51,809 nucleotides of DNA from Schmidtea nova (lineage: Eukaryota). The notes beneath the pieces are model-generated. The model ran no database searches. It was not told the origin of the DNA and saw nothing but the letters and a program-made list of their open reading frames with translations. The stretch is taken from the NCBI GenBank assembly GCA_044892505.1, contig CM097882.1, positions 202,442,192 through 202,494,000 of the forward strand, read 5' to 3'. Position numbers and translations under genes: made by a program. Every line of letters starts with the position of its first letter. The first letter of the stretch is position 1. Of the stretch, positions 23,871 through 48,262 are shown piece by piece.

Positions 23871-25635
23871 TCTAAAACGACTGAATTACTTTACAATGAA
23901 TGGATTATAAATCAGAATAAATTAAATAAATCAATTAATTTAATGGATACCAATTTGACTATTTTATTTTAGAGATCCGTAAATCAATAGTCAGCATAAT
24001 AGTCAGTAAGAATTATCAGCTTTTTACTCACAAAAAGTCTAAAATAACATTTACTAATTTAGATGACAGTAGACTTCGGATAGGTAACAATGAGAACCTG
24101 GCTAATGTCAATTATAGCGTTATTGATATGATTATAAAGGTGCGTGATAATGCTGTTGATGAAGCTGAAGAAGATGTTAACGAAAATGCCGAATATTTTA
24201 GTTATATTAAAATTTATTTTAAAATTTTGTGTTACTTCGAAGATTTTTTTGTTTTTGTCGGAGAAGAGCAGTTTTTGATATAATTTGTTTTTTAGGTGTT
24301 TCTTTTGGTAATTCGATTGTTAACTTTTAACTTTGGGATTATTTTTACATTTTACATCTTTTCTGTACTCGAGTTTTAGAGCATTTTCAAAGTATGTGGC
24401 ATTTCACCCATGACTTTTGAAAAATTAAACGAGTATAGAACACAAATCAAAAGAAGAAAAATAATAATCCGTCAGTTCTTCCGGTATTCTTTGAAAGTTT
24501 GTCTAGGAAAAAGTTTGTATTTAATTTTTATAATTCTAAATGTATAGAGTTTTATATTGTCAAATTAGTATTTCGATTTAATGATGAGGTTTACACTCGT
24601 GCTGATTCCTTTTCTTATTCTATTGTTTATGAATTAATTGATGTGATTGATGGCGATTCTAAGTATTCTGTATTGTTCTTTGCTCTGTTCTCGTTTATAT
24701 TTTCAAACGTCATGGGTAAAGACTGCCTGTCTTCTATCTATTCGAGTTTCAGAACGGAGTCAATTAATGGGATTTAGCGTTGTTTTCAGTCATATCGATG
24801 TTTGTGAATATGTGAGTGTGAGAGTTTTGAGCCCGTGTGTTTGCCTCATTTTTTGCGGTTTAAGTAAATTAACTGATGTGGTTGTTGATGATGTTTATTT
24901 TCTTCTTTTAATTTGTGTTCTATACTCGTTTAATTTTTCAAATGTCATGGGCGTAATGCCACATACTTTGGACAAGACTGACCGTCTTTTCTGTACTCGA
25001 GTTTTAGAACATTTTCAATTGGGGATTATGGATTTCGTTTTCAATCATTCTGTTGTTTATAAATATGGAAATATTTATAATATATTCTTAAAAAATATAT
25101 TTTTTTGTATAAAAATAAAATAATATTATATTTTTAAGATTAATTTATTTAAATTAAAAAATTTTAATCGATTAAAATTTTTTGAATAATATAGAATTTA
25201 AAATTTATATTTTATTTTAAAAATTAATACTAATACGTTTGAATAATCGATTTATATTTGAATGTAAGATTGGGTAGCACCTGATGAAGAGAATTAAGTT
25301 CCCAAAATATATTGTGCAAAATATATATTTGGATTGGCGTTTGTTTTTAATTATTTTAGTGCCATGCTAGTTGTGTTACGTATTAAATATTTTATAGTTA
25401 GAATAAAAAAATAATAATAAAAGAAATTCATTTTGAATAAATATGTCAAAATATAAAGCTAGCGACCAATATTGTAAACAAGTTTAAAACAGTCAGAAAT
25501 ACAATATCATTTTCAAATGCGAATTTAACATTTTAATAAGATTAGGAAATTCGACGAAATTCTAAGAATTAAGAGTTACATTATCTGTGCTGGTGTGTTG
25601 GTTAGATTGACAACTGAGATCCTTATGATTTTATA

Positions 25636-25809
25636 CGTTAGGGTGATCTCGCCAACATAAAAACATTTTCCCCGCTGACACCCATGATGTATCCCTAACT
25701 ACTCATCATGTTGGTGCTGTGTCAACGTTGTGAAATGACAAGGCAGGTGAGCAACCTTTCGGCTACTATTCCCTTGTTTATTCACGGGTCCACCACTACC
25801 GATAGAAGG
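25636..25809 (-). ncRNA. Putative structured U5 cis-element
   Basis: Sense RNA folds by eye into GUGAA/UUCAC - ACAAGG/CCUUGU - GUAGCC-GAAA-GGUUGC and CGUUGACAC/GUGUCAGCG - CAUGAUG/CAUCAUG. Confidence 0.55.
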
Positions 25810-25971
25810 TGTCTGTGGCTTTCTTTCGGTCCCACTTATGCTCTTTACTTTGCTCTAGGGTAATTTACTTTTTTGGATATCTGCAGCTTTAAATGAACCA
25901 GGTTTTCATTACTTTTAATTCTCATACATACTTCAAACAAACAAGACAAATCAAATCATTCATTTATACAT

Positions 25972-26535
25972 TTATTTGTAGTTCAACAATACAGAGGGTC
26001 GGATTACATTTAGTAGTTCTTGCTCAGATAGACCACTGAGCAAGTCTACCTCTATTCCGAGACGATCTGCATATGCGCGTCTTTCCCTGCGCTTTTTCGC
26101 TCCTAAGCGATTCCTCCTCTTTGTGCGTTGTGAGCCTGCGGGAATTGTATTTGTCACTGTAGTAGCCGTGGCTATGGTCGATGCATTCTCTGTTTGGGTG
26201 CTCGTAGTCACCGCTATCGTATCTATCCATCGATTAAAGGGGCTCGCTCTGATCACGGGGCGTAGTTGTTCGGTGATGAAGTCGCGGGTCGATACCTTCA
26301 AATAATTCGCCAACTCCAATTTCAGGGCTGCAATCTCTCTGGCATGTTCCTCAGCTACTCGTTCTGCCCTGTACCTAGCCTGCAGGATGGACTTAACCCG
26401 CTCTGGATTAAACCATGTCGTTTTAACCCGCTGATGCTCCTCATTCAGCTGCCTTAATCGATTCTCCAGCACCCGTGCGCGCGCCTTGTGTTCTCGCGCC
26501 TCTTGCTTGAAGTCTCTGCCCTTGGGTTCCGTCAT
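25972..26535 (-). CDS. LTR-encoded ORF L2, 187 aa: coiled coil, TSTQTE (LC8-type motif), Arg-rich motif, Leu-rich C-terminus
   Basis: Intact; 23-aa block VKTTWFNPERVKSILQARYRAER is identical to the solo copy with 12 synonymous codon differences; AATAAA overlaps the stop (25971-25976). Confidence 0.85.
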   Translation of the reverse strand: MTEPKGRDFKQEAREHKARARVLENRLRQLNEEHQRVKTTWFNPERVKSILQARYRAERVAEEHAREIAALKLELANYLKVSTRDFITEQLRPVIRASPFNRWIDTIAVTTSTQTENASTIATATTVTNTIPAGSQRTKRRNRLGAKKRRERRAYADRLGIEVDLLSGLSEQELLNVIRPSVLLNYK

Positions 26536-26726
26536 GTCTGTAAATATATCATTAATGTTGGTATATGTTATGTGTCTGATTTTTCGGTCATCTTATCGTC
26601 GTTAAACAACTCCGTTCTATCATCATATTATTTCCATGCGCTCGAAAGAAAAACAAAACAAGACCGTTTTCACACAAATACATATATTTTGTAACTACGA
26701 CAATCATTCTCTCTCGGCTGCGACAA

Positions 26727-27362
26727 TCAACTGAAGGCCCTCAAGTCCTGATCGGCAGGATGCTCGTCGCGACGAATTCCATTCTCCTCATACATTTCTG
26801 GGGCTGGGGTCCAACTCAGCTTATCTTTGTAGATAAACACCTCCCAGAGGCGAAGCTCCTTGGGCTCGGGGTGTTGTTCCACGGAAACACTTCCTGGTGC
26901 ATTGGAATAAGTGAAGACTTCCTCAGTGTAGCGACACCGAGGCCTGTCTAGCAGCAGGTATCCTAATTGGAAAAGAGCCCTTCCGGTCATCATTCCATTG
27001 CTCAATACCCAGCGGGGTCGTCTCTGCTCGTCGAGAAATTGGAAGAACCATCTAGCGGTCCTTGGTTCGGCAGGGTCCATGGTGGACATCCAATCGGGGT
27101 CTCCTTCCCATCGTAATTGTAACGTGAAGGCGCAAGCCGGAACATCTGCGGCTGCACTCATATGGTGTCTTGTCCACCGCCGTAGGTGGCGACGCGCAGT
27201 TTCGCTAATTCTGCGTGGGGCTTCCATTTCTCCCTCGATGGTGGGGATCCTCCTTGGCCGGACGACGGGACGGATGCGTCGGGGTTTCCGGACGACATAA
27301 TCTTCCATTTTCATCTGTCGATAGGTGCTCGGACTTCTTTGATATTCTTCGGTCTTTATCAT
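26727..27362 (-). CDS. LTR-encoded ORF L1, 211 aa, basic N-terminus plus unknown globular domain
   Basis: Intact; homolog in the solo LTR; strong acceptor CCTAAC...TCTTCTTGTCTTCAG 4 nt before ATG. Confidence 0.85.
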   Translation of the reverse strand: MIKTEEYQRSPSTYRQMKMEDYVVRKPRRIRPVVRPRRIPTIEGEMEAPRRISETARRHLRRWTRHHMSAAADVPACAFTLQLRWEGDPDWMSTMDPAEPRTARWFFQFLDEQRRPRWVLSNGMMTGRALFQLGYLLLDRPRCRYTEEVFTYSNAPGSVSVEQHPEPKELRLWEVFIYKDKLSWTPAPEMYEENGIRRDEHPADQDLRAFS

Positions 27363-28323
27363 TTTTCTGAAGACAAGAAGATGTGATTGTGATGAATTTG
27401 TTAGGTGCGTGCAATTATTTATAATCGGCGACCTACTCGACTCAAGAGTAAAACTCTGTAGGTTGCCGTTGGTGTTTCAGTGTTAGATCGGTTCGATGTT
27501 CAAGATAGTAGGTAGGTTGTATGTTATCGTCATGTGGTTGAGTGTATTCACTATGTCAAGTTGCTTAACTGATTTGGCCACGCAAAAATTCAGTGCAGTT
27601 TATGACAATCTTTATTCATTTATGATGATCACTTGATCATTTATTATGTTAGAATATCATCATTTCATAGACCATTTGGGTTTATATCTACAGCAATCAT
27701 ACTCACTCGCATCTCAGGTGTTATCTCCATACCTCAGGTTCAACTATCAAGAATCACATCATCCGGGGAACATGATCGACCCCTTATTCAGGTTAATTGG
27801 GTACAGATTGTACTTGCATTACATTTCGTGGGTCTATCCTTCGTACCCTTCGAGAGGTGTACATATATGTTGGGATATCCTGTGGATTCATGGTTTACCT
27901 CTGACCCTAGCCCTGTCGGTCTCTGACTCACCTGACTCATGTAGTGTATATCTCCATACTAACCCTTTGCACAAAACCGTCGTTACTCTACTCGACTTCA
28001 CGACGCTGGACACTCCTGGTCTATTAACAAGCCTTTTATGTATACTGATTTACTCGGTGTCGTCGTGACAGATGATACGTCCTTCAATTGCTTTCACCCA
28101 TACCGATGTTGCGATGGCATGAGATATCCGATGTGCCCTTCCCCCTTCCGCTTGTTAAATATTTAGAACACCTATGGTCCCGCCGCATCAGCACCTCACA
28201 ACCGAAAGATTGTGTTGCGCTGAGAGGCCCCAAGAATCCGTCAGGCTGTTAGGCCTCCGGAAAACCTTATGGATTTTAACATATTTATATAATTATGAGG
28301 GTTTAAAAGACTAATACAACGTG

Positions 28324-28463
28324 AATTACCTTTTATTTCTTTCCAAATTGGTTTCACAATGTTCTCAGTAGTCACAAACAATTCACACTTGGTAAAGATA
28401 ACATTGTCAAATACTGATTTGACTTCAGTATTTATACTCCACCGGTGTTGTTGGTTAGCCAAT
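28324..28463 (-). promoter_or_regulatory. LTR promoter and leader-exon splice donor
   Basis: ATTGG 28459-28463, TATAAATA 28429-28436, TCAGT 28413-28417, donor AAG|GTAATT at 28330/28329; same layout as the solo LTR. Confidence 0.65.
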
Positions 28464-28838
28464 CAGCATCGAGTATGTGTGTATGTTTGCTTCATTATTT
28501 TGTGTTGTCGGCTTTTTGCTGCCTAACTTAACTTGCCGATTTGTTTGGTTAATCATGCGGTAAGTTTTTCTTAGTCATCAATTTATTTTATTTTATTTTT
28601 GTTTATAGGTCTTTGGTGACATCCGCCCACGCGCTGTCATATTCAGATTTTATCTGCTTCGCATGAGTAAGTTTTGAAGATTTTTGTTGTTTTGATTAAT
28701 ATTTTATTTCTTTTAGATGTTGCCGCCTATTTTGTTACGCTTTGGTGTTGGTAATTTATTTTGTTGTTATTCTGTTGTAAATTTATTTTATTGATTGTAT
28801 ATTATTTTCAGATGCTGCTCGATTTGGCTGGCCCAACA

Positions 28839-29038: not shown

Positions 29039-29563
29039 TCAGGTCCTTTCACTGGTTGACTGCATTTCGTATCGGGCTTGAATTTGTCGTAGATGGCTTC
29101 TCATTCTTTGGTGGGTTTTGGCTTCTCTTCTGGCGCATCTACACATTATCGTTTGTTGTTGTTTGAGGCTTCTGATTCGATATAGGGTATACGTGATCAC
29201 TATGATCAAGATGATTGTCAGTATTGTCATTGTGACTATTCCCACGATGATCCATCTGTTTCGGATTTCGGATTCGATTTGGGTTTGACCTTTGATTGGC
29301 TTTAGGTGATCTTGAAATGTTCTATGGATTTCTCGGATCTTCTCGATTTGATTGAATAGGGTTTGTACGGGTTTGCGATGATCATGACTGATCCGCATTT
29401 GTCGGATTAATTGTTTCAAGTCTTCTCTGACTTCGTTTAGTTGTTTTTCGATCTCTTGGGATATCTCGTTTGACAGGGTTCTTTGGATTTCGGTTGTTGA
29501 ACAGTTCATGATTGTTGTAGCTAACATAATCGTTAGGATTGATAGGGTTTTGAGCCAGATCAT
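29039..29563 (-). CDS. 174-aa type I membrane protein (signal peptide, coiled-coil ectodomain, TM, basic tail)
   Basis: MIWLKTLSILTIMLATTIMNC signal-like; TM WIIVGIVTMTILTIILIIVITYTLY; acceptor CAG 2 nt before ATG. Confidence 0.8.
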   Translation of the reverse strand: MIWLKTLSILTIMLATTIMNCSTTEIQRTLSNEISQEIEKQLNEVREDLKQLIRQMRISHDHRKPVQTLFNQIEKIREIHRTFQDHLKPIKGQTQIESEIRNRWIIVGIVTMTILTIILIIVITYTLYRIRSLKQQQTIMCRCARREAKTHQRMRSHLRQIQARYEMQSTSERT

Positions 29564-29636: not shown

Positions 29637-30800
29637 TTACACATCCGTCTCCTCTGGTTCATGAAACCCTTCATCTTGGAGTTCCATTGGTGGTGGTGGT
29701 ATAAACGGTAACCACACCACTCTGCTTCTCCACATTGCAATTTCATCTTGATACGTTCGAGAGATTTGTATCTCTTCATCTAACAGATACTCCATGTAAT
29801 CTGATTGTTCGCTTAGAGTTTCAATTTGTCTTTCCATCTCTTCCACTTTTCTCTTCAGGGCTTCTACTTCTGTAGGTTCGGTTTCTACTTCTATGGTTTC
29901 TTTCAGGGTTATTATTTGTTGTTTCAGCTCCTCGTTTTCTTTCGTCAAGTTCGTTATGTTTTCCTCGTAAGCTCGGTTTGATTCCGCATGTCTTTCTTTC
30001 ACAGCTTTCAGTTCCATTTTCTTTTGGGTCACCACCCCTTGATAACCATTTACATCTCTTTCCAAGCTTTCTTTTTCCCTGTTCAACTTTTGTCTTTCCG
30101 CTTCCTCTTTTTGTCTAATACCTCGCATTTCTCCATTTATCATCTGTACTTGCCATTGCGCTTTCTTTAGTTCCTTTGCCTGCTCTCGAATAAATCGTTG
30201 TCGTTTTCGACTCCATTCTTTGTTTGCTTGTTCTTGTCGTTTTCTCTGTTCTAATTCCTCTTTCAATTCGTCTATCTCTTGATACAGTTTCCAATCTTCG
30301 CTGTGTGCTGTCCTTCTGATTATTTCTTTGGCTTCTTTATACACTCGTTTCGACTCCATCTTCCAATGTCTCGCTTGAGCCTTGATTGCTAGTATTTTTA
30401 CCTCCATCTTTTCCTCTTGTTTCTCCTTCTCTTCTCTTCGCGTTTTCATCATATTTTTATAATGTTCTGCTTGTTTCCTCATCAACTGATAGGTCTCTTC
30501 TATCTTCTGTCGACTTCGTGCATTCGTTCCTTTTAGCTTCTCTATTTGTGTTGTCAGTTGTACTATCTCTTTGTTTACTTCCTCGAGTTCTAGTTGATAT
30601 AACTCCATTCGTCGTTCGCATTCCAGTTTCTCGTAGAAATTGTTTGTCATCACTTCGTGTAACTCTCTGGTTCTTTGTTCCACTTCCATTTTACATCTCT
30701 TTTCGATTTCTCTTTCGATTTCTCTTTCTATTGTTTCTTGTTCGTTCAACATCTCGCTTCTCGTTTCATCTTCGATTACATGTTCATTTGCGTTTTCCAT
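29637..30800 (-). CDS. 387-aa long coiled-coil protein with C-terminal PPPP and acidic tail
   Basis: Intact E/K/Q/R-rich heptad sequence; acceptor TTACAG 1 nt before ATG. Confidence 0.8.
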   Translation of the reverse strand: MENANEHVIEDETRSEMLNEQETIEREIEREIEKRCKMEVEQRTRELHEVMTNNFYEKLECERRMELYQLELEEVNKEIVQLTTQIEKLKGTNARSRQKIEETYQLMRKQAEHYKNMMKTRREEKEKQEEKMEVKILAIKAQARHWKMESKRVYKEAKEIIRRTAHSEDWKLYQEIDELKEELEQRKRQEQANKEWSRKRQRFIREQAKELKKAQWQVQMINGEMRGIRQKEEAERQKLNREKESLERDVNGYQGVVTQKKMELKAVKERHAESNRAYEENITNLTKENEELKQQIITLKETIEVETEPTEVEALKRKVEEMERQIETLSEQSDYMEYLLDEEIQISRTYQDEIAMWRSRVVWLPFIPPPPMELQDEGFHEPEETDV

Positions 30801-30889
30801 TCTGTAATTTACAAATTTACACTTGTTATACTATACGTTTATTGTTGCTGTCGATTTTTACACTTTATTTACAGGGTCGTTCATTCTGA

Positions 30890-32302
30890 CTACTCCAACC
30901 ATCCTTTCGTTGACTTCGTGTTCATCACTGTTGTACTTGCTTTCTTTTCGATTTCCAATTCTACGTATAGGTTGTCGTCGTACAACATTTCCCACATTGT
31001 TTGGTGTGGTATGAATTTTGGTTCTCCAGTCGCTAATGAACATTCTGTGGTTGGTCTTTTGTAAGCTTCGTGCTTACCATCAATTTTGAATACTCTCGCT
31101 ATTGTTTCTTTCGAGTTTTTCACTCTCATTATAGCCTTTGTTTCTAGTGGCCATTCCAATATGTCGTCGTAACCACCTTTACACAACGCAAAGAATAATG
31201 ACACATGCGTTTCCTTTCCTGATCCATCTCCATTTGGATAAATTCTCATCCGGACTTTGTATTCATTTTTCCACAGATAGAATGGTGGACTTGTTACCGA
31301 CACTTGACTTCCTGTTTTTGCTGCTGTGAATTTGTCATTGAAGTTCTTGATTTTCCATACATATGGTGCAACAGGTAAACTCTCGATATCCTCTGCATCT
31401 CGCACCCATATTTGATGTCGCACGTTTACTTCTTTTACTAGCGTCTCTATGACTTTGATTTTCTCCATCATTTTCTCTCTGGTGAGCTCGAATTGCTCTC
31501 TCGTTTCCAGTAATAACTCTGTCATGATCCTCTGAGATTCAATTTCTTTTCCTAGTTTCTGTATGGTTTGTTCCATTCCGTTCAAATTTTCTGTTAACAT
31601 CTCTGCGTGTTGTACCGTCTCGGTTTCCAAATGTTCTTTCATTTCTTTGCTCGTTTTCTTTACTACACATCCTTGTTTGCTCCATACGCACTTTCTTGGC
31701 CTTGCTTCACATCGTTCCCAATGTTCTTTCAACATCACCTCTTCTCTGGCTCCACAATTACTTGGACACATTCCTCTGAATTTTCCGCACACTTTCTCTT
31801 CTGCTACATTGAGATGTTCTGTTTCAATTATCTCTCTTGTCTCCCTTTGTTCACAGTATTGACATTCTATTATTTCTGCTTTGCACTCGTTCTTGTGACT
31901 TTTCAACTGCTTGATGGTTATCGTCTGTTGACACTTTTCACATGTTGCTTTCTTGTTTTCGCATTTCTCCAGATGTTGTCTGAGTTCGATTATTTGACCT
32001 TTCCACTCACATGGTTGGTTTATACATTCTGTTTTTATCTTCCAGATCTCCTTTTGGATTGCTTTGTCTGGTTTCGTCTCGTTGATTAGTAGTTTATCGT
32101 CACACTCTGGACACTTTCTTGTCTCACTTTCACTGATTATTTGCAATATACACTTGGTGCACATCCTGCATCCACATTCCGTTTGCCTCGGTTTTAACAG
32201 TAGATTTTTACACTTTACACACGTCACATTTACTCCCCATTGTCGATTTTCTCTTCTTAGCATCTCGATCGTTTGGTAATCTGCTTCACTTTCTGCTCTC
32301 AT
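30890..32302 (-). CDS. TRAF-family protein, 470 aa (RING, TRAF zinc fingers, coiled coil, MATH)
   Basis: RING CVKC...CGCRMCTKC...CPEC; zinc fingers CINQPCEW...HLEKC; MATH VWKIKNF...SPPFY...RIYPNGDGSGKETHVSLFFALCKGGYDDILEWP...PKFI; intronless. Confidence 0.95.
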   Translation of the reverse strand: MRAESEADYQTIEMLRRENRQWGVNVTCVKCKNLLLKPRQTECGCRMCTKCILQIISESETRKCPECDDKLLINETKPDKAIQKEIWKIKTECINQPCEWKGQIIELRQHLEKCENKKATCEKCQQTITIKQLKSHKNECKAEIIECQYCEQRETREIIETEHLNVAEEKVCGKFRGMCPSNCGAREEVMLKEHWERCEARPRKCVWSKQGCVVKKTSKEMKEHLETETVQHAEMLTENLNGMEQTIQKLGKEIESQRIMTELLLETREQFELTREKMMEKIKVIETLVKEVNVRHQIWVRDAEDIESLPVAPYVWKIKNFNDKFTAAKTGSQVSVTSPPFYLWKNEYKVRMRIYPNGDGSGKETHVSLFFALCKGGYDDILEWPLETKAIMRVKNSKETIARVFKIDGKHEAYKRPTTECSLATGEPKFIPHQTMWEMLYDDNLYVELEIEKKASTTVMNTKSTKGWLE

Positions 32303-32392: not shown

Positions 32393-32743
32393 CTATACAT
32401 CCTCAGTTGAATCCGCCTCTGGATACACGTCTATTTCATTTACAATCCAGCTCGTCCAACTATCTGGTATCTCTTCCTCTTCATGTCTCGTTAATCGGTC
32501 AATTTCCTCTGCTTGCCAGTTGTTCACTTCATTCAATGTTCGGTTCTCGTTCTGTAATTCGTTTATCTGTATTTGTTGGATCTCGATTTTGTTCATTGCT
32601 TCGAAATTACAGTTATAACTCTCGGTTAATAATTGCGTTTTTGCCGTCAACTGGCTCTGTAATTCATTTACTGTTCTGGCTAGCAGGTCGCATTGTACTT
32701 TCCATCTCGTCATCATTGACATCTCGATATTTTCTTGGTTCAT
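32393..32743 (-). CDS. 116-aa coiled-coil acidic protein
   Basis: Intact, same strand and spacing as neighbours; acceptor TAG 7 nt before ATG. Confidence 0.7.
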   Translation of the reverse strand: MNQENIEMSMMTRWKVQCDLLARTVNELQSQLTAKTQLLTESYNCNFEAMNKIEIQQIQINELQNENRTLNEVNNWQAEEIDRLTRHEEEEIPDSWTSWIVNEIDVYPEADSTEDV

Positions 32744-32866: not shown

Positions 32867-35524
32867 CTATACAACTATTACTGGTTTTCCTTCGTACAGT
32901 TCTTCGTCCTCGATCTGTACCCACATCTCTTCGTGTTTTGATCGTCTTCTCAGCTCTTCTCGTACTTCTTTTGGTAGTTTTTTGTTGTAATTCGTGACCT
33001 TTACGTCCGGCCATTTTACTGCTATGGTCTTATTTCTCATGCCATATCTCCAACATACTATCATGATCGTTATCAGCGGTATACACGCTATGAATACTCC
33101 CATGCTGATTAATCCCATTACTGTTTTTCCAATGCTCATTCTTGGAGTCTCACTTTGGTTTATCATCACGCCATATTGACCTTTCCATTCTGCTTCCCAT
33201 TGTTCGTATTGTTGTTGTCTCCGTCTGACTTCTTCGATCACTTTCTCGGGTTCCCATCTTTCTTGTTGATTTTGTAGTATTTCCTCCGTCTCTGTTTGTT
33301 CTCTTTTCTGACTCAATTCTCGGAATTCTAACTTGCGGGTTCCCCCTTTTATCGTTATGTTCCTTGGCGTGTAATAGGTTTCGCACCTTTCTTGTTGATT
33401 TCCTTGTGCGTCTACTTCTTCGATTGCACACACTTCGTATTCTGCGTTTGTTTTCAACCTCCTCATTTCTACCTCGATTATTTCCCTTTTGTCATTTGAT
33501 GTCTTTTGACAGTTTCGTGGAGACTCTCTCATACTGTTTGGCATTAATGTCCAACAGATTTCTAGGACCTTTTTATGGATCTTCCATATTATCAGAGTCG
33601 TTGATTCCGGTTCGTTTTTTATTGACGTCCCTTCTGTTGTCTGTTGAGTTCCTTGACTGTTGGTTGTCGTGGTTCTTCTTGACTTTCTTTTCCTCTGTCG
33701 ACTTCCTCCCATTTCGATCGTTCTTGTACCGTTAATTTGCTCTGGCGTCTTGTACAGTCTGCACTCCAGGCTTCTTTGTATTACTTCTCTTATTCTTCGG
33801 ATTACGCAAATTTCGTAAGCTTGTCCGACTTCGAATCCATTTAGTTGAAACGGGATTCCTCGTTCTCTCGTTTTACATTGCGGTATTATGTTGTTGGTCG
33901 ATACTCCGATGTATTTTCTCCAACACATCCCAATTGTTCTCCGACCAATGTTTTTTATCTCCACCGTTACTACTTCATTCGCAATCGTTTCTTGATCTTG
34001 TTTCTTTCTTTTTGGGAATTCAATTATCTCCTTTGCTTGGAACACTTTACACTCGCTTGTTCCTGGTCTGTTTCCGTTTGCTGCTTTTTCCATGAGACAT
34101 AGTTCACATTTTCTATCTGTCTCCATTTCAGTTATCTCTATTTCCTCATTTGTCTCCGCCTCTACTATTTCTCTTGTTTCGCTGATTCCAATTACCTCAT
34201 TGTTTCGTCCCCAACATCTTCCATTCGTTGTTCGTTGATCTTGGATGTTTACTAACGTCATCACGCTGATATCTATGTCCTCCATGATTCTCTTAATGAG
34301 GATTAATATTAATGCTACACATATCAATTCTGGTTGGAATGTTAATTTGCCCGCTGAATTTCTGGTTATTCTTTCTTTCTCTGTTCGGTTTCTGATTCCT
34401 TCTTCTGCTTCAGATTGATTCTTCCCTTTCTCTGATTCCACTTCTGTTCTTCTCGTTGTCTCTTCGCTTCTTTTTCCAATCCATTTCTGTATTTTCAGCG
34501 CTTCTGTTGCTTTATATAATTGACATGCAGTTACCTGAGGTGCTTTTGGTTCTCCTCTCTGCTTTATTGCGCATATTATGTATGACTTTTCTTTCTCTAA
34601 TCCTTTGATTTGGATGACGTCCCGCTTCAAATCTGACAATATACACTTCAGCGTATCGTTTTTCCTCATATTCTCTTTCCAGCATATTCTTTCGTATACT
34701 TCATTTCTTCTAATTATCTCTAGCGTGACGTATTGTTTCTTGGCTTCTCCTTGTCCGATGATTGTTATCAATATCGCAATACACAACATTTCCGGTCTCA
34801 AAAGTAGACTTCCTGTTCGTTTTCCATAGTTTGTACGTTCGTCTTTTGTTCCATTGTTTTCTCGTTCTTCGGCTTCCCCTTTCTTGTCTTTTTCCGTTGG
34901 CTTTGGTTCTTCTTGTCTTTCTTTTTCATTATCCTCTGTTCTTTTGTTGTCATTGTCTTCGTTGTTCTTTTCGTTGTTACTTTTGTCGTCGAAGTCTCTG
35001 TAACCACCCCCTGGTCCTTTGAAAATGTCGTCCTCGACATTAATTTCTTTAATCAGTCTTTCATACGCTTGAACCGCGAGTGTGCTAGACTCGAATTCAC
35101 GTATTTCCATCTCCTTGGATGGTTCCCTGTCTTCTAGTCTACTTTGCTTGATTGCTCCTTTGGCATTTGTCCATTCATTCACATATTTTCTGAACAAGTC
35201 TTTCCATCTTCCCGTTCGTTCGGGTTCCTTTGGATTGTTCGTGAACTTCAAATCTCTTCTCTTTAAGAATTCTTCTACTATCTCTGGCTTTTTGTGTCTT
35301 AACAACGCGCTTCTGATACACCAATTCTGATTCTGTTCCATATGGTCATTGATCTTGAATGCCGGTTCCTTGGTGATCGGATTCACCCATGTTAGCAATG
35401 CTCTTGTTTTCTCTATGTCGTGTATCATTACTGTCAGACTGAAATTCTTTACGTTATTTGCCAGGTATTCTATGTCCTCTTGTCTCTTGATGGACTTTAT
35501 GAACTTGATCATCTCGAAATTGTT
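32867..35524 (-). CDS. Polyprotein C-terminal segment: end of ankyrin repeats, acidic linker, signal-like segments, ~4 FN3-like repeats, TM, short tail
   Basis: In frame with 35525-43984 across one TAG (IDIAIQ*NNFEMIKF); repeats such as IKGLEKEKSYIICA, LNGFEVGQAYEICV, LKTNAEYEVCA; TM GLISMGVFIACIPLITIMIVCW. Confidence 0.75.
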   Translation of the reverse strand, partial: NNFEMIKFIKSIKRQEDIEYLANNVKNFSLTVMIHDIEKTRALLTWVNPITKEPAFKINDHMEQNQNWCIRSALLRHKKPEIVEEFLKRRDLKFTNNPKEPERTGRWKDLFRKYVNEWTNAKGAIKQSRLEDREPSKEMEIREFESSTLAVQAYERLIKEINVEDDIFKGPGGGYRDFDDKSNNEKNNEDNDNKRTEDNEKERQEEPKPTEKDKKGEAEERENNGTKDERTNYGKRTGSLLLRPEMLCIAILITIIGQGEAKKQYVTLEIIRRNEVYERICWKENMRKNDTLKCILSDLKRDVIQIKGLEKEKSYIICAIKQRGEPKAPQVTACQLYKATEALKIQKWIGKRSEETTRRTEVESEKGKNQSEAEEGIRNRTEKERITRNSAGKLTFQPELICVALILILIKRIMEDIDISVMTLVNIQDQRTTNGRCWGRNNEVIGISETREIVEAETNEEIEITEMETDRKCELCLMEKAANGNRPGTSECKVFQAKEIIEFPKRKKQDQETIANEVVTVEIKNIGRRTIGMCWRKYIGVSTNNIIPQCKTRERGIPFQLNGFEVGQAYEICVIRRIREVIQRSLECRLYKTPEQINGTRTIEMGGSRQRKRKSRRTTTTNSQGTQQTTEGTSIKNEPESTTLIIWKIHKKVLEICWTLMPNSMRESPRNCQKTSNDKREIIEVEMRRLKTNAEYEVCAIEEVDAQGNQQERCETYYTPRNITIKGGTRKLEFRELSQKREQTETEEILQNQQERWEPEKVIEEVRRRQQQYEQWEAEWKGQYGVMINQSETPRMSIGKTVMGLISMGVFIACIPLITIMIVCWRYGMRNKTIAVKWPDVKVTNYNKKLPKEVREELRRRSKHEEMWVQIEDEELYEGKPVIVV

Positions 35525-36790
35525 CTACTGTATTGCGATATCTATGATGGAATTATTCTTTCCATTTTTCCCTTCGATTTTTGCTCCTGCTTCGTATAAT
35601 TCGCTTAGCACTTTAAAGTTCGTCTTCTTTCTTGCTGCGATTATCATGATTGTATCTCCGTTATCATCAACCGTATTCATGTCCGCTTCGCATTTGACCA
35701 TTGCTTTCGTTATTTCTAGCACTTCGTTTTCTTTCTTTCGACGTAATGCCCAGTGTATCGGCAATCTCCCATCCTTTGATAATAGGAATGCCACTGGCAT
35801 TTGATTCTTGATTGTGTCCATATCACTCTCGTTATAATCTCCTTGTGCGTATCTGTGCACTTTCTCTGTAATCGCTCCTAGTATCTCTAGCGAGTTTTTA
35901 TTCTCTTTGAATTCCGATAATTTTTCCTGCGCTTTTACTACGATTGCGTCTAATCTCTCTTGATATTCCGCTTTTGCATTGAACAACACTGCTTTGTTTC
36001 TTATTCGCGTTTGCATCTGTTTCATTCGTTGGTCTTGATATACTGCTTGTCTGAAGAATTGTCCATACTTCAATGCTTCCATCAGCTCTTTATATCGCTT
36101 GCTTATTTCTTTGTGCTGCTTTTGGATGTCATAGAAATGTTCGAAGCTCATATCCGGATTCCATTGCTTATCACACCATTTCTTGATTAATCCGAATAAT
36201 TCTTTCTTTCTGTCTTCCAGCTTGTATTCTCTTGGGTTCTCACTAACCCGTAGCGTATCTCTCGCTATCAACACTGCAAGTGTTTTTGGATCGTATGTTA
36301 CTTCTAATAGATGTTTCAGTAACGCATTTTCTCCCCTTATGAACACTTCATTACAATCTATGACCCACGAATCTCCTTCTGGTCGTTTCCACTTTAGCAA
36401 TATTCTCCAGGTTTTACTATTTCTTACTCCGATTGCTTGTTTCATGATCGATCCTCTAGTTAGTTCATCGATTTCCCACGTGGCATTTTCCGTGATATAC
36501 TTCAGTATTCGGTGATTCGCTCTATCAATTGCATGATTCAAGAATGTTCGTCCCTCTTTATCTTTTGTCAACCAATTCGATCTGGTGTTTCCGAATAGCT
36601 TGATTATTTCATCTTTTCTTCCATGAATCGTCATCATCATAAGTGGAGTAATTCCTTCCCAATTCACTTTGTCAATTTCTCCTCCACCTTCGAGTATCAT
36701 CCCTACAATTTCCTTCACTTTTTCGTTTCCACTGTGCTTGATTGCATTGTGCAACGCGGTATTACCGTCTTTGTCTTGTAGATTCAATGT
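35450..36790 (-). CDS. Ankyrin-repeat region fused downstream of integrase
   Basis: QDKDGNTALHNA, NWEGITPLMM, KDKEGRTFLNHA, KDGRLPIHWA, DDNGDTIMIIAA, GKNNSIIDIA. Domain edges approximate. Confidence 0.9.
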
Positions 36791-37149
36791 CTGAGGGATC
36801 TCCTCTAGCAGCGTCCTTGTTATTGGATGTGCTGTTCTGTCTTTTGCATACTCCATTACATTCTTTCGAACTTCTGACAGTATATTGAAATCGTGCCACC
36901 ACCTCCATTCCGGTATAATTTCTCTGGTTTTCCTTGCCAGTTCTTTGATGTCTATTATCTCCCTTCGGTTGTCCTCTAGACTTGTTTGCGGCTTTTGTTG
37001 TACTCGCAACATACTGATTCTCGCCGTCTGTGATCTTGTCATTACCCGTTTCTCTGGTGATAGAGTTGCTGTCTTTGGTATTTTCCTGCATCGACATGCA
37101 TTCACGTATATTGGTCTTACCAATGGATTGTTCACCAATCGTACTCGCA

Positions 37150-40100
37150 CATTATTTTCGTTTACTGTTGTGATTTCATATGGCCCTTTGCCTGGTCGTT
37201 GGAGTTTTTTGACCGTACCGGGTATTATCTCTGGTGTTTCGATTATCACCCAATCTCCAACTTTTAAATCATGTGCTTTCACATTCTTTTTCTGATCATG
37301 CAGATCCTTGTAACTCTCTTGATAGAACTTGATGTTCAGTTCCGCCGTTTTCCAGATTTCTTGCATTCTTTCTTTGAACTTTGTAACGTAATCGTCAACC
37401 TCCATGTACTGTGATAATGGTGGTTGGTATTCTAAATCGATCGGTAAGTTGCAATCTCTTCCGTACATCAGTTGGAATGGACTTAGCTTTGTTGCCGCAT
37501 GTATTGACATTCTGTATGCCATTAAACACAAGTTTATATACTCGTCCCAGTCAGTCTGGTGTTTGCTGACGTAATTCGACAACATGCGTATTAATGTTCC
37601 ATTGAATCTTTCTGTTTGACCGTTCGTTTGTGGATGGTATGGGGATGTTCGTAATTTCGCAATTCGGAAGTAATTCGTAACTTCGTCTAATATTTCACTC
37701 ATGAAATTTGTTCCTTGATCCGTTAGGATTTTCTTTGGTGTTCCGTATCTGCAGCATATCTCTTCCACCAATATTCTCGCGACTGTTTTTGCCTTTTGAT
37801 CCGGTATTGCGTATGCTTCTGGGAACTTTGTTAGATAGTCCGTGACTACTAATATATACTGATTCCCCTTTAAACTTTCCGGCAATGGTCCAACTACATC
37901 CATTGCTATCGTCGCCATAGGTTCTGCAGGTATTGGCATTGGTTTTAGTGGTGTTTTCCACTTCGTTCCGACGTTCTTTCTTGTCGCACAGGTTAAGCAG
38001 TTCTTTATCCATTCTTTCACATCATCTTCCATGGTTGGCCAAAAATACTTTTGTCTCAATCTCCCGATTGTCTTTTTTGCTGACATATGTCCGCCTAATT
38101 TTCCGTCATGATATTGAGTCATGATTTCCTTTCGTCTGTTCGCAGGTAAGCACATTAATCTCCGTTCTCCATCTTGTATCAATAACCATCCTTTCTCCAC
38201 CACATATCTATGTTGATATTTCTGCATATGTTCGCGCAACGTTTGGTTCTTGCCGAATATTTCCATTTCCCTTTCTTTCAGATACTTGCTGATCATTCCC
38301 AACTCCTCATCTTCGAGTTGATCTTTCCTTAGTTCGCTGAAATCCAAATCTTCCGCTATTAATGCACATATTTTTAGAGCATTCAGGTTCACCAATTCTG
38401 GAAATGTAAACCTTGACATGCAATCCGCATTTGCATTTGCTTTTCCTGCTTTAAACTTTATGAATGGCGAGTATTCCTGCAACTGCATCGCCCAACGCAT
38501 CAATCTACTTGATGATTCTTTATGTTGACCTAACCATACCAATGGTTGATGATCCGTCGTGATATATATTTCATGACCCCACAATAAGTACTTGAAATGC
38601 TTGATTGCCAATATTATCGCATAGGCTTCTCTTTCCGTGACTGAGTAATTCTTTTCGTGCTTCCTGAACGTTCGACTGTAATATCCAATTACTCTTTCCT
38701 TGCCTTCTTCGTCAAATTGGCCTAGTACTGCTCCTGCTGCATATCCACTTGCGTCTGTTGCCAACAGAAATGGCTTCTTAAAGTCTGGATGGACCAATAT
38801 TGGTGCTGTAATCAGCTTATCTCGTAATGTTTCAAATGCTGCTTGCTGTTCTGGTCCCCATACAAACGACACGTCTTGTCTTACTAATTCTTGCATTGGC
38901 TTTGATATTCCGGCATAGTCCTTGATAAACTTTCGATAATATCCACACAATCCCAAAAATTCTTGTATTTGAGTCACTGTCTTTGGTGGTGGACATTCTT
39001 TAACTTTCTCGATATTCCTTGGATCTGGTTCTTTTCCTTTTGCCGATACAATGTGACCTAAGAATGTCACTTTTTCTTTTGCCCAATCGCACTTTGACGG
39101 CTTTAATTTCAGTTTCCATTGCCTTAATTTCACGAACACATTTCTGATGTCTTGCAAGTGATCCTCGAATGTTGCAGAGTAGATCAATAGATCGTCGATG
39201 TACACCATGCATTGTTTTATGCCATGTGTTACGAAATTCATGCATCTCTGGCATGATGCTGGCGCGTTTGTTAACCCAAACGGCATTTTCTTGAATTGGT
39301 ACAGATCTCGTCCGATTGTAAATGCTGTCTTCTCTTTATCCTCGTCTTTCATTTTGATCTGCCAATATCCACTTTTTAAATCCAGTGACGTGAAATAAGC
39401 TGCTCCTTGTAACGTCAATAACATTTCGTTTATGTCTGGCAGTGGGTACGTATCTCTTTTCGTAACTGCGTTCAATCGTCTGTAATCGATACAGAATCTC
39501 TGAGTTCCATCCTTCTTTTTCACCATCACCACTGGGAATTGCCAGGGTGAGCAACTAGGTTCGATGACCTCTGCATCTAACATCTTTTGTACCTCTTCTT
39601 CTGCCACTGCTTTTTGCGCTTCTGCCAATTTATATGGTCGTAATGCGATTGGCGTTTCGTCCGTCAACGGTATCGTATGTAATGTTACATCGCATGTTCC
39701 TAAATCCAGATCCGATGCTGCGAATATATCTTTATACTCCATCAACAGTTTCTGTAGCCGTTCTTTTTGTCGTTCGTCTAACAACACACTGTCGATTTTC
39801 CATGGTAATTCGCCTTTGCCTTTCTCATTCTTGTCTGGTATCTCGATTTCGGACATGGGTGTTAATTTACCCAAATTCTCATTCTCGTATATTATCTTGT
39901 CCTCTTCGTCGAAGTTTACCAGATTAATCGGTATTTCTCCTTCTTGGTTTATCGTGACCAATTCTCTTGCCATTGGTAATTCTTTCTTTGCTTCGAACTT
40001 CTTACTGGGTTCGAATATCATATCTCCTTTTATTGTCGAATCGATCTTTACATAACACATCATTTCATGTCTCGCTGGCACTACTATTTGTTCCGCACTT

Positions 40101-40480
40101 GCCACTTTAACTTTCATCCTGCAGATTTTTCCTGTCCTATCTTTTAACTTCATTGCTCCTAGATCAATTATGATTTCCTTGAACAGGTCTGGCATCAGGT
40201 CAGTTCCAATAATACATGGTACACTCAGCGATGGTATTACAGCGATGTACGTGTTGATCTCTGCACCTCGATGCTTAATTTTTACAAACCATCTTCCGGC
40301 TACTTCTACTGTCTCTTGACTGCACGCGATTACATGTACGTTCGTCTTCTCGATTTCTCCTTGATTTTTCTCTGGTATATAGTTGATGTCGATTGCCGAA
40401 ATATTCGCGCCTGTATCGATCATTGCTTCAATTTCTCTGCCATTTATTTCTACGGTTGTTGTTAAGATCGGTCCCATATT
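37150..40480 (-). CDS. pol: Pol domains: aspartyl protease, RT, RNase H, integrase (within ORF 35525-43984)
   Basis: PR AMIDTGAN (~40415); RT RFCIDYRRLN, LDLKSGYWQ, MPFGLTNAP, VYIDD (39191-39205); RH ATDASG...TDHQPL; IN HHCC finger, MDVVGP / TDQGTNF / NGQTERFN, GPY motif. Domain edges approximate. Confidence 0.97.
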
Positions 40481-40699
40481 TGTGGACATAACCGCTATCG
40501 TGTGCGTGTCTTCTAACGAGTTTACACTTCCACCTCGTTTTACTTTGCATCCTTCGGGAATTATCGGGTATATACTTGTCATCGGCATCATCTGCATCAT
40601 ATTCGGCTTCGCTTTGTATATTGGTTCGTTATACATTGACTGAGGTGGAGCGCTGTATCTCCAATTCTCAACTGCACTCTTTTCGTTATACTGTGGAAT

Positions 40700-42850
40700 C
40701 TGGTTTATATTCGCTTGTCCTCCTCGATCGTCATCGTCATCGTCGTCGTTGCTTGAATCATCTTGTGTTCGATATCCCTTCACTCTTTCCCATAATCCTT
40801 TCCTTTCTTTCTTGAGTTGTCGCCTTGCTTGTTCGTCTTGCATTATCTTTTTGAATTTTCTTCCGACATCTTCATTTGTTCCTTTCATTTTTGCAAGTAT
40901 TTTCAACAATCTCTTTATTCGATGAATGTCTTTTGAGTGTCCGTGTAACACCATCGTTTTCGCAAGGAATGGTAAAAACCCTACTACCATCTTCCAATTC
41001 ACTTTCTTTTCTCTTTTGTAGATATCGAAACACGCTAACATTTGCGTTATTATCACTCTGACGATTTGTATTATCAATATAACACCCAGTATTCCAGCCA
41101 TCATTTGTCCAAATATCAGGAATCTTCCCCACATTGCCTTCATCATATTTTCTGTGGCTTTCTTGAAATGTGCCGGTGACAACAACAGTTCGTAATTCGG
41201 TCCTTCTCGATAATTCGTTCCTCCCGTTATTGTTACGATATTTGACAGTAATGCTTCTCTTCTTGCCGGAAATAGTATATTCTGTCTTGCTGCTTCCAGA
41301 TCTTTTGGACTATAGATTCCGTTGTTTGAGACATCTACGTCACTGAACTGTCTATCCTTCGATAACTGCATTAGCTCAAATTCTCTTGGTGCTAATACTT
41401 CTGTTCTTCCTGGGAACATAACCCATTTGCCATCTGGCTTCTGATAAAGCGGTCCGTACGCGTTACTACAGTTGAATGGATTTGGTTCAAACCCTGGTGG
41501 ATTGATGATTCTCGTCACCGGTTGAACGTATCGTACTTTTCCTTTGTAATCGATTTCTAGTTCGTTTGTACATTGTCCAGGTTTCAACTGCGTTGTTGCT
41601 GCTAGCGATGCATGTGTCTTTTCGCAAATGTATACGTACATTGCCTCTCCAACCACTCTTCCGAAATGTCCTTCTCTCAGTGGTAATAACGGCATCGCGC
41701 TATCTGGATTCGTAATCGCTACGGCCAACTTTGTCTTCAATATTTCCCGATTCAGTATACAATCGTTGTTTATCAGATCATAGTACACTTTTTGCAATGA
41801 GGCTTGTCCTCTATGGAATAAGAAATCCATTTTATTATTCACATACAAGTGTAGCTTGATATCCATGGTGTCGATCTTGGGTTTCGCATTCGGCACTTCT
41901 TGCTTTGACACGTATATTCCTGGATAGTTCGTTTCGTATACTGTTGTACTGCACTTAAGGGTTGCTTTCCCTTTTATGAATCTCATGCCCACATCCTGAT
42001 TTGTGGTTATCAACACTGTTGGTGTGGTTCTCATTTCTATCCGTTTCTCTCTATGATCCGGTTTCAATTGTCTTTTATTCTCTAAAGCCTCTTTGAGATG
42101 TTTTGCTCTAGCTTTGTCATCATCATCTTCTTCTTGGAATGTTTTCCCTTGAATTTCGTCAAACTTTGCTCCTTGTAGCAGTTGTAATTGACATTCGTTC
42201 ACTTTTGGTTTGTATACCAATGTTGACATTCCCGTTTGACACATGCTTCTGTCAATTTTACACATGGATAACGTTTTCATTTCTCCTGTTGTTGGTTCGA
42301 AGAATGCTTCGTAACTTTTCAGTTCAACTATGTACGTATCCATTACTACTAAGTTGGTTGCGGGTACTCCGAATATTGGGTAGGTTTCTCCTTGACAATA
42401 CCCTTCTCCTCCCGTAATCCGTCCTGCTACATAATACGTCTGCTGTAACATCATTCCTGGCTTTCCTTTTATCTTGATTTTATCTCTCGTTGTTACTTCT
42501 CCATGTTTGAACAATGCTTCGCAGTCTTCTCCTTGCAACACAATTGGTTCTCTTTCGGTTCCTGGCATGACAATTGCTGAATAATGTCCTCTACCGCAAT
42601 AGAATGCGAATCTCGTCTTTTGCACTTTGCATTCATTCACCATTGTCTTTATTAGTTCTGCCTCTTGATACACGTGATACCATTGTTCCTTTTTGATCTC
42701 TTTCAATTTTACTGGAGTTGCATCTTTGCACTGCTCCGTACCTCTCAATGAGTACTTTTCTCCTAACTTCATTTGATCACAGTCAAATACTTCAAATGTT
42801 GTTACACCCTCTGTGCTTAACAACCATACTATCATCATCATGATTATCGA
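40700..42850 (-). CDS. env: Envelope glycoprotein, chuvirus (Jingchuvirales)-like class III fusion type, between Gag and Pol
   Basis: Signal-like NSIIMMMIVWLLS then FEVFDC...YSLRGTEQC; CKVQKTRFAFYCGRGHYS; YVNNKMDFL...VYYDLINNDCILNREIL...GEAMYVYIC; TM FLIFGQMMAGILGVILIIQIVRVII. Family assignment comes from my recollection of the motif pattern, not from a search. Confidence 0.8.
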
Positions 42851-42964
42851 GTTCAAATTCAACGTCGATCTTCCGTTTCCTTGCATCGTTTGTCTATTCT
42901 CCATTTCTCTCAATACTCCTTCAAGTTTCTTTCTCATCACGTTTGACCCTTCTTTTGTCTGGTT

Positions 42965-43360
42965 CTCTTTTATGAACTTTTCCCATCCTCCTTTTCTGAG
43001 GATATACGGTTCAATTTCTTTCTCGATAATCATCGCCGTATTTTTAATATGTCTTCCCATCGGGCTTGACTTCGGACTTTCTCGGCTTAGCGTTAACAAA
43101 TTGTATATCGTATACGAGATTGCTACTAGATATTTGCTGTCCGTTTCTGCTCCGTTTAGTAGCCTTTTTACCAACGTCGTGGTTCCTTGCCAATCTAGAT
43201 GATTCGATTTTGTTTTCGCCTTGATCAGTTCTGGCATAATCGGTGCTATCGCGTTGTGTAGCATCCTTGCCTTCGTACCGGGTTCGTTTATCCGCCACAG
43301 ATTCTTTAATTCTGGGTCAATTATCGCTAACACATCCATTATCGTTTTGGTGAGCCATTC
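42965..43360 (-). CDS. Divergent Bcl-2-like domain (within polyprotein)
   Basis: BH2-like IEPYILRKGGWEKFIKE (compare Bcl-xL LEPWIQENGGWDTFVE); BH1-position helix LVKRLLNGAETDSKYLVAISY lacks NWGR. Confidence 0.6.
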
Positions 43361-43987
43361 CTCTCCTTGGCAGACTTGATTCTCCTCTTTTCCTCTGATT
43401 TCTGCGATTTTGTCTAATTTCTTCAAGCAAATCTCCCATTGCTCTTGTCTCCTTTCTTCCCTTGTCTTTGGGATTGCTGTTGCTGGATCTATCTTTGGTC
43501 TTCCTCTTGGTCGTTTTTCCATTCCAGTTCCGGTTTCTACAAATCTCGTTACTCTTCCCGTTTCTTCCGTAACATCTCTTCCTTCGTTTGCTCGTTGTTC
43601 TAACCATCTTTCCATTTCTTGAGTAAACTGTGGTTGTTCTTGCTCGTCTTCTGAATCGTTTACCATTTCTATGACTACCTCCTGTTCCACTCCTTGATCG
43701 TCGATTTCTGCTGGTGACGTTATTGGCATCTCTATTATTCTGTCAAAAATATTCGCCGTTGGTTTTTGAGTCAACTTTGTTAATTCTTCTATCGCCTCAT
43801 CACTGTCTGTTAGTATCTCATCGACGTCATACGCTTCTGGCGGTGTTCTCTCTCTCGTTTTTATTGGTGTTGTCCTTGCTTGTCCTGAACTTGTTCCTGG
43901 GGTCATTGTTGACTTCATCGGACTTGGTGTACTCATGCTTCCTTTCGCTTTCTTTTCCTCTTTAAACTTCAGTGGTTGACCCACTAT

Positions 43988-46576: not shown

Positions 46577-48262
46577 TTATTCTTCTTCTCGTCGTACTCT
46601 AGCCCATTCTTGATTATGTTTCTGTTGACTCTCTCTGTTTTCTCTTTCGGCCTCAGCTTCTATTAACTGGATCATGTTTATCTTTGGTTGAGCAGCTTGC
46701 TGGCTTCCCTTTGCCATGCTTTCGATTATCTCGTGTAATCTGGATACCTCCTGTCTCAACTTAGCTTCTTTCATACTAGCTTCGTTTGCACTGCTGTTTG
46801 GGTTGTTCCGTTGTTGACCTTGATTCCCATAGCTTGGTCGATTCCCGTAATTCGGTCTATTTCCACTGTTTGACCAACTTCTCTGTTGATTACAGTCTCT
46901 TGACATGTGTCCGGTTTTCCCACATGTGTAACACGTTTTCCCATAACATCGATTTTCTGAGTGACCCTTTTGTCCACACAGTTTACAGGCTACATTCTGA
47001 AAACACTCTTGTTGCCAATGTCCGTTTTTCCCACACGTCTGACATTGCCTATTCTGCCTGTCATTGTAACTATTTCCTCCATTCGGGTTCACCGTGATAT
47101 ATCCGTTATTTTTCCTCGCTGGCGGTTCTTTGAACAATCTCTGCGAATGGGGAATACTTTGATTCATGTTTCTTTTTCCTTGTTCTTCATCTTCTGTCGT
47201 TTTTCCCATTACCGCCGTAATTCTCATGTCATTCATTGCCATATGCAATTCGAATAGGTTGGCTGCTTCCAACGCTTCATCTACTGTTTTACATCCTTTG
47301 CATCCCACTTGTGCTCTGATGTCAGGTCTCCTGAGACCTCGTACGAATAACGCTGTCATCAATTCTTCGTCTACTGGGCTTCCTCTATTGAATGCCAGTT
47401 TCGCCAACTTTCTTAATTCACTTGCGTACACTGCATTTGACTCGTTTCTCCTCTGTTTTCTTGCTGAGAACTCATCGAACGCTTCGTTCAACACTTTATT
47501 TATCCCAAACGTCTGTTGGAAGAACTCCTTGATTGCTTCCCACGTTCTGGGTGGATTACTTCCCGATCTCTTCTCAATATACAGATCCAATGCGCTATCT
47601 TTCAAGTATAGCGGGATTCGATTCGCTAACGTTTCTGCACTCCATCCGCATATATCCACGAATATGCCAAATTCCTTTAGAAACGTATCCAATCTACTGG
47701 CGTCTCCATTGAATGGTTCGCCCTTGAATTTTTCTCTTAGATCCTCTCTGTGATCACTCATCCCGATTCCACTATCTTGGAATACTGTACTAGTTTTCTT
47801 TACTTCTAGTTCACCACTTGTTTCTGAATTCGACTCTTCTTCTTCACCACTCTCTGTTTCGTTATCTCTTGATTCGCTTCTTGTTCTGTTTTCCCTGACT
47901 AGTTCACTGTCTATCGTCTCTACTTCGTTTTGTACTTCTAGATCTTCTGGGGTTTCTTCTTGGTTCTCTTTGTTACTCGAATTATCGCGGATCTCTACTT
48001 GTTTGTTCTTTTGTTGCTTAGGCTTGTTACCTGTTCTTGTCCTTTTTGCTGCTTTTCTTTCTGCTTCCGTTAAGATTGGTATTATACCTGATCTTGTTTC
48101 TCGTCCCTCAATTTTGTCTATTCCTCAACTGCTTATATTCTCAACCGATTTTCTACTTCGCTTTTGCTTTGCTTCTTCTTTGATTTGTTTCCTTTGATTG
48201 CTCTGACTGCTAGATTGCCTTGAATTGCTTGATTGATTTGTTTCCTTAAAACAAATAATCAC
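46577..48262 (-). CDS. gag: Gag (Ty3-type capsid plus three CCHC knuckles) with an in-frame acidic/basic N-terminal extension
   Basis: PFNGDASRLDTFL...PLYLKDSALDLY capsid; CQTCGKNGHWQQEC, CKLCGQKGHSENRC, CYTCGKTGHMSRDC; frame stays open upstream of ATG 47761 to 48262 apart from TGA at 48125-48127. Confidence 0.9.

Follow-up and report, generated by a model that had tools for sequence, protein, structure and literature searches.

A complete TRAF gene as accessory cargo of a Burro-type giant retroelement in Schmidtea nova

An open reading frame (ORF) at 30890-32302 on the minus strand of a 51,809-nucleotide stretch of the Schmidtea nova genome (hereafter the window) encodes an intact, intronless RING/zinc-finger/coiled-coil/MATH protein of the TRAF2/3/5 type. 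The gene is an accessory gene of a giant LTR retroelement and is regarded here as a variant of the cargo already published for Burro elements. The His-to-Cys change in its RING domain is ordinary, and the indication that such elements have captured TRAF genes repeatedly is the lead most worth following.

Architecture of the TRAF protein

The ORF is open for 470 codons, without a stop and without need of an intron, and was characterized by ORF scan, Pfam, PDB search, an AlphaFold2 model and codon usage. From the N-terminus, it encodes on the minus strand an all-Cys (C4C4) RING domain (residues 28-67, 32102..32221, from alignments), about five TRAF-type zinc fingers (residues 93-232, 31607..32026, from Pfam and alignment), a long helix or coiled coil corresponding to TRAF-N (residues 229-306, 31385..31618, from the AlphaFold2 model) and a MATH/TRAF-C domain (residues 314-451, 30950..31363, from Pfam and PDB matches). 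The protein thus has the marks of the TRAF family: an N-terminal RING with TRAF zinc fingers, a coiled coil before the MATH domain and, at the C-terminus, a TRAF-C/MATH domain. The MATH domain is above the Pfam cut-off (MATH_2, 7.8e-27 for residues 314-451; TRAF-mep_MATH, 1.9e-23), and the matches of residues 28-67 to the TRAF2/3/5 RING (1.4e-4) and of the zinc fingers to zf-TRAF (1.6e-4) are under it. The top PDB matches of the whole ORF are the MATH domains of TRAF5/3/1/2 (6.6e-26 to 4.5e-23); the MATH domain itself matches TRAF5 at 1.2e-26, with TRAF5/3/1/2 nearest and TRAF6 more distant, and the RING-zinc finger part matches the same region of TRAF6 (3.9e-14) as well as the RING regions of TRAF5/2/3. 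The AlphaFold2 model, built from a 17-sequence alignment (mean pLDDT 86.8, pTM 0.40), contains a RING, zinc fingers, a single 78-residue helix at 229-306 (pLDDT about 90) and a MATH sandwich. The zinc-finger ligands are invariant or almost so among 13 aligned sequences, and the Atlas groups the protein with TRAFs at 0.98. The original prediction of a complete intronless TRAF with a CGCRMC RING is therefore borne out by Pfam, PDB, AlphaFold2 and the ligand alignment.

The same layout of RING, zinc fingers, coiled coil and MATH is reported for vertebrate TRAF2/3/5 and for planarian Smed-TRAF-2A/B (PMC7586133). The RING and MATH domains of the ORF are closest to those of TRAF3/5/2, although identity to named vertebrate TRAF2-like proteins is only about 25% and vertebrate TRAFs carry His as the fourth ligand where this protein has Cys. 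Capture of a TRAF by a mobile genome is also reported for viruses, as in the case of megalocytivirus ORF111L (PMC3352826) and the TRAF-like proteins of giant viruses. Foldseek relates the present protein to an iridovirus TRAF (E 1.5e-20), whereas the iridoviruses are DNA viruses and their TRAFs are shorter (206-296 aa).

The carrier element

An LTR element encloses the TRAF ORF, which stands after pol and ahead of the 3' LTR; gag, env, PR, RT, RH and IN are upstream on the same strand. The 5' LTR is cut by the window edge, and its 3' end (51726..51809, minus strand) is identical to 25588-25671 in 84 of 84 nt, which is all that the window lets be compared. The 3' LTR (25588..28838, minus strand; about 3.25 kb, TGTTGG...CCAGCA ends) was recognized by this match and by homology to an inverted relative at about 12920-16000, which together with the terminal inverted repeat set its start. 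It holds two intact minus-strand ORFs without a Pfam family, at 25972-26535 (187 aa) and 26727-27362 (211 aa), which are kept in the sister LTR and differ in codon usage from the internal region. An 18-mer adjoining the 5' LTR (51702..51719, minus strand), which resembles a primer-binding site, is presumably of the tRNA-Pro type; a tRNA scan found no tRNA.

On the minus strand, the gene order begins with a 152-aa accessory ORF (50710..51168; Pfam, PDB search) with a C-terminal IAP-type RING, whose top PDB matches are the RINGs of cIAP2, cIAP1 and XIAP and in which Pfam finds no BIR domain. It is followed by a block of tandem repeats found by repeat scan (48602..49974; 19-nt units and longer dispersed repeats) and by gag (46577..48124; Pfam), which has Retrotrans_gag and CCHC knuckles, is open from 48124 and has its first ATG at 47761. 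An 845-aa ORF (43988..46525) lies by frame analysis in frame with gag and the polyprotein, with one stop on either side; it has no Pfam family, and its last 402 aa have no PDB match. BCL2-like and ubiquitin-like motifs before env, the latter as stretches within the 845-aa ORF, were seen by eye only and have no Pfam match and 0 PDB matches; a ubiquitin match of a relative, P0161, is below the cut-off. The 2803-aa polyprotein (35525..43936; Pfam) comprises a mononegavirus-like fusion glycoprotein (1.2e-71), protease, RT, RNase H, integrase and ankyrin repeats (Ank_2, 6.9e-17). Behind one stop and in the polyprotein frame stands an 881-aa ORF (32867..35512), a probable membrane protein with fibronectin-III-like domains according to the Atlas (fn3 0.86, a lead only) and its hydrophobic segments; two of its hydrophobic stretches are internal and signal-like, it has a multi-fibronectin-III look, and a membrane protein of this type is not described in the Burro section of PMC6431247. 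Then come an ORF of 116 aa, coiled-coil-like with an acidic tail (32393..32743; ORF scan, Pfam), the TRAF ORF, a coiled-coil-like ORF of 387 aa with no family above the cut-off (29637..30800; ORF scan, Pfam), an ORF of 174 aa with an N-terminal hydrophobic stretch and one transmembrane segment (29039..29563; ORF scan, hydrophobicity) and the LTR with its two ORFs.

In anatomy, as far as it can be read from the sequence, the element matches the giant env-bearing Ty3/gypsy elements of the Burro type as described in PMC6431247. Burro1/GYPSM1 and Burro-2 to -4 of Schmidtea mediterranea are likewise giant gypsy-type LTR elements with env between gag and pol, ankyrin repeats, tandem repeats and MATH_TRAF_C and IAP-type cargo (PMC6431247). 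Here the internal region (28839-51725) measures 22.9 kb, within the Burro range of more than 20 kb between long LTRs; the mononegavirus-like env stands between gag and PR-RT-RH-IN, ankyrin repeats are present, and MATH_TRAF_C occurs together with an IAP-type ORF without a detected BIR, whereas B-IAP of Burro1 is reported as BIR-RING. The long frame of Burro elements, a gag-env-pol ORF of about 5,000 aa, is uninterrupted in that description, while here gag and the 845-aa, 2803-aa and 881-aa ORFs share one frame cut by single stops at 46577, 43988 and 35525. ATG codons lie 17, 17 and 4 codons downstream of these stops, respectively. Of the 15 env-bearing relatives inspected, 9 have gag and env-pol joined in one ORF; this copy therefore either is decaying, as the in-frame stops suggest it may be, or is read in a programmed way.

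MATH_TRAF_C, BIR, BCL2-like, ankyrin and env domains have all been reported in Burro elements, and TRAF-domain cargo is therefore already known (PMC6431247). In S. mediterranea, however, MATH_TRAF_C is reported among the domains of a 4,873-aa ORF1, while the present TRAF has a complete ORF of its own, located 3' of pol. A Burro-like element of Dugesia (Girardia) tigrina is closer in this respect, since its MATH_TRAF_C is encoded by an accessory ORF distinct from the polyprotein, although that ORF lies upstream of ORF1 and not downstream of pol (PMC6431247).

Codon usage agrees with long residence. The third-position A content is 0.46 in the TRAF ORF and 0.44 in the polyprotein, and the RSCU correlation with the polyprotein is 0.83 for TRAF and 0.85 for gag (0.11 and 0.34 for the LTR ORFs). 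The closest of 135 matches to the protein is only 35% identical, and the zinc ligands are nevertheless kept. That the TRAF is element cargo, as had been predicted, is upheld by its place within the LTRs, its sharing the strand of gag-pol and its element-like codons, and had been published before for Burro elements. The four spacers at 29564-29636, 30801-30889, 32303-32392 and 32744-32866 (minus strand) contain repeated TGTA[AC]A and an AG right before the ATG; 11 of the 32 TGTA[AC]A sites fall in these spacers, which occupy 375 nt of 22,840. The motif [CT]AG stands at most 12 nt from the ATG in 7/7 separately framed accessory ORFs, 45/158 internal ATGs and 0/3 in-frame long ORFs, counts to be read with the fact that the acceptor motifs were picked by eye first and counted afterwards. 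These motifs are candidate splice or trans-splice acceptors.

Outside the element, whose flanks are AT-rich, the inverted LTR-like sequence at 12920-16000 (plus strand) is 64-72% identical to the element LTR, has homologues of both LTR ORFs (14515-14826 and 15053-15613) and is probably the solo LTR of a sister family, for which no target-site duplication was confirmed. To its left, at about 12760-12900 (plus strand), a short Cys-rich stretch resembles, on inspection by eye, a nuclear receptor's second zinc finger; it is possibly a host exon, and 8574-9194 possibly another. The window also contains a tandem array (19349-20050) in which a 15-nt unit occurs some 33 times or more and which is open in several frames, and inverted repeats at 24388-24460/24898-24970 and 3047-3172.

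The RING domain

Cys occupies all eight ligand positions of the RING (28, 31, 43, 45, 48, 51, 64 and 67). At the fourth ligand, the position of C45 (codon TGC at 32168-32170, minus strand), the solved RINGs of TRAF2, 3, 5 and 6 carry His, and the C3HC4 set with His as fourth ligand is thus absent from this protein. Among 135 TRAF matches of up to 740 aa, counted after removal of 19 longer multi-MATH proteins, the fourth ligand is His in 80, Cys in 24 and another residue in 7, with the motif unmatched in 24. None of the top 15 BLAST matches has His (Cys in 11, Phe in 1, no motif in 3). The ORF belongs to a clade of 21 members; of its 20 relatives there, 16 carry Cys and none carries His. Outside this clade, 8 more matches have Cys. 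Given its frequency among the 135 matches, Cys is a clade variant and no ground for excluding the ORF from the TRAF family. An element-specific disabling change is rejected, because Cys is the rule in the clade and all eight zinc ligands are kept. The alignments indicate that the clade inherited the all-Cys form of the RING and that this form still folds around zinc. Since the change is inherited and recurrent, and Cys binds zinc, it is no sign of a decoy, and the original prediction that it might make the protein a decoy or an altered ligase does not hold.

The loop that contacts E2 is a different matter. K30 and K32 align in the RING alignment with TRAF6 I72 and L74, a placement of the TRAF6 numbering that depends on C70, and the hydrophobic I72/L74 loop of a TRAF6-type active E3 is therefore missing. 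Mutation of I72/L74 in TRAF6 is reported to abolish Ubc13 binding, the TRAF2 RING appears not to bind E2, and TRAF5 shows diminished activity alone while working in heterodimers (PMC5702613). TRAF3, which is the best solved-RING match of the ORF and is followed by TRAF2, carries K and H at the two positions. Weak ligase activity, if any, would be better explained by the loop lysines than by the His-to-Cys change, much as in TRAF3, and a weak-ligase or adaptor role is plausible from this loop. Taken together with the TRAF3-like RING and the behaviour of TRAF5 and TRAF2, it makes an adaptor of this kind the most fitting reading of the protein. The QT-CG-R core and the linker helix are conserved, and in that helix a Lys stands where vertebrate TRAFs have Arg.

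Relatives and repeated capture

The expanded TRAF/MATH repertoire of planarians, which the original prediction took as established, is documented by reports of 121 domains (PMC6109357) and 282 contigs (PMC7586133). TRAF occurs 100 times in the RING/U-box table of PMC8807557, where the expansion is described as unresolved. Literature searches for a link between the expansion and elements gave only PMC6431247 and unrelated papers, and no further primary paper on Burro elements was found.

The 21-member clade of the ORF has a FastTree support of 0.945 and an SH-aLRT of 99 in a quick tree (42 rows), and it was not recovered as one starred branch in a smaller careful tree (24 rows, LG+G4). The three nearest relatives are P0008, P0001 and P0027 (support 97/95), in which Leu+Phe+Ser amount to 9-13%, an element-like make-up, versus 19-22% in the group of P0011, P0014, P0015 and P0018; this common make-up can itself draw the ORF and its three relatives together in the tree.

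That some annotated TRAF paralogs are element-borne, as had been proposed, gains one further clear case and one weak case among 154 TRAF matches. In the clear case, P0018, an integrase C-terminal tail (residues 12-58) stands in frame with a complete Cys-type TRAF. This head matches P0180 by phmmer at 1e-14 and scores 51.8 bits by profile, where the top score among 2000 shuffles is 11.9, and its 16 significant matches are the polyprotein of this window and its closest relatives. The model is without a start Met and could be chimeric or an insertion beside a host gene. In the weak case, the head of P0045 (residues 26-137) weakly resembles the LTR ORF (E 0.0035 among 154), scoring 14.1 bits where the highest of 1000 shuffles reaches 11.1. 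P0018 pairs with P0015 and P0021 (99/98), apart from the TRAF ORF of this window. A single capture uniting P0018 with the group of the ORF is rejected (p-AU 0.0007; 24 rows, LG+G4), in a test for which that group was defined from an earlier tree and in which P0015 and P0021 might also be element-borne. Since the fusion lies in another subclade, the trees suggest repeated uptake of TRAF genes by such elements, and an insertion confined to this one copy is unlikely. The literature searches gave no report of a second Cys-type TRAF that is joined to an integrase tail from this element class and belongs to another subclade; Grohme 2018, Jurka 2007 and Lee 2026 may already describe full-length TRAF ORFs. 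The published Smed-TRAF primers have no exact peptide match and at least 5 DNA mismatches to the TRAF matches and the window, an uninformative comparison. A broader set of env-bearing gypsy polyproteins comprises P0156-P0169, of which P0167 bears the label of a Flavobacteriaceae MAG protein and probably comes from a contaminant contig.

Possible function

We give somewhat better than even chances to the explanation that the protein is an accessory adaptor, kept for a long time, which takes part in host TRAF complexes and acts together with the IAP-type RING in favour of carrier-cell survival. In this view, a Burro-type Ty3/gypsy element with env would have acquired a host TRAF2/3/5-like mRNA long ago and retained it 3' of pol as a functional accessory gene, presumably expressed from a spliced or trans-spliced subgenomic RNA. 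The protein would trimerise via its coiled coil and MATH domain and enter host TRAF complexes as a scaffold, not as a stand-alone ubiquitin ligase; with the IAP-type RING of the element, it might shift stress or innate-immune signalling (TAK1/p38, caspases) toward survival of the carrier cell. TRAF, TAK1 and p38 components exist in planarians (PMC7958881, PMC4795655), knockdown of a planarian host TRAF leads to more cell death (PMC7586133), and the Burro1 IAP protects stem cells from apoptosis according to a citing paper (PMC13465017).

Some points stand against the adaptor. None of the protein's matches carries a planarian name. The BIR is the domain by which cIAPs bind TRAF2, and none is detected in the IAP-type ORF of the element. 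The copy, with its single in-frame stops, may be decaying. By analogy, the one studied viral TRAF points the other way, since ORF111L binds TRADD and promotes apoptosis (PMC3352826). A search of two membrane-protein tails for TRAF-binding motifs gave one PxExxE (chance P 0.10) and no TRAF2/3-type motif, and a complex prediction with three MATH/coiled-coil chains and the tail of the 881-aa protein scored 0.00, which is evidence neither way.

The E2-binding loop, being unlike that of TRAF6, would also suit a dominant-negative decoy, whose MATH domain and coiled coil occupy receptor tails or poison host TRAF trimers and so damp antiviral or stress signalling. The Lys in place of the linker-helix Arg fits such a decoy too, as does a MATH domain with YPNGDG and SLFF blocks and a last strand more diverged than in the group of P0011, P0014, P0015 and P0018. 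It is nevertheless unlikely: the same loop and linker residues are found clade-wide, even in members whose amino-acid make-up is not element-like, a mere decoy would not need the zinc ligands, which are all kept, and the His-to-Cys change lends it no support. Those eight intact ligands, in a confidently predicted RING fold with a conserved QT-CG-R core and linker helix, would suit an active E3 ligase that has its own E2 partner and targets host restriction or silencing factors or proteins of the element. All-Cys RINGs such as that of CNOT4 are active ligases and provide a precedent. Such a ligase is still quite improbable, as basic residues occupy both hydrophobic E2-contact positions and the nearest solved RINGs are those of TRAF3 and TRAF2.

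A recent one-off retrocopy, carried as a passenger without function for the element, has very little to recommend it. MATH/TRAF is found in 0/120 related polyproteins, a count in which separate accessory ORFs would not show, and in-frame stops occur elsewhere in this copy. A recent passenger is, however, hard to reconcile with codon usage equilibrated to the element, with an intact ORF whose ligands are conserved at 35% identity to the nearest relative, or with the same element-like amino-acid make-up in P0008, P0001 and P0027; in addition, Burro elements from two species are reported to carry MATH/TRAF cargo (PMC6431247).

Implications

The His-to-Cys change is by itself of no importance. If the adaptor reading holds, the complete TRAF would join the Burro1 IAP (PMC13465017) as a second candidate for cargo that promotes survival. 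As a tentative and rather doubtful extension, env-bearing giant retroelements may have repeatedly captured and spread full-length TRAFs. Cargo of elements, or genes derived from it, would then account for a considerable share of the unexplained TRAF/MATH expansion in planarians (121 to 282 transcripts), and each element might bring a private signalling kit of TRAF adaptor, IAP-type RING and membrane proteins that sets stem-cell survival. Should element-borne TRAFs form much of this expansion, the numbers given for 'host' TRAF genes and the RNAi findings on them would need to be reread.
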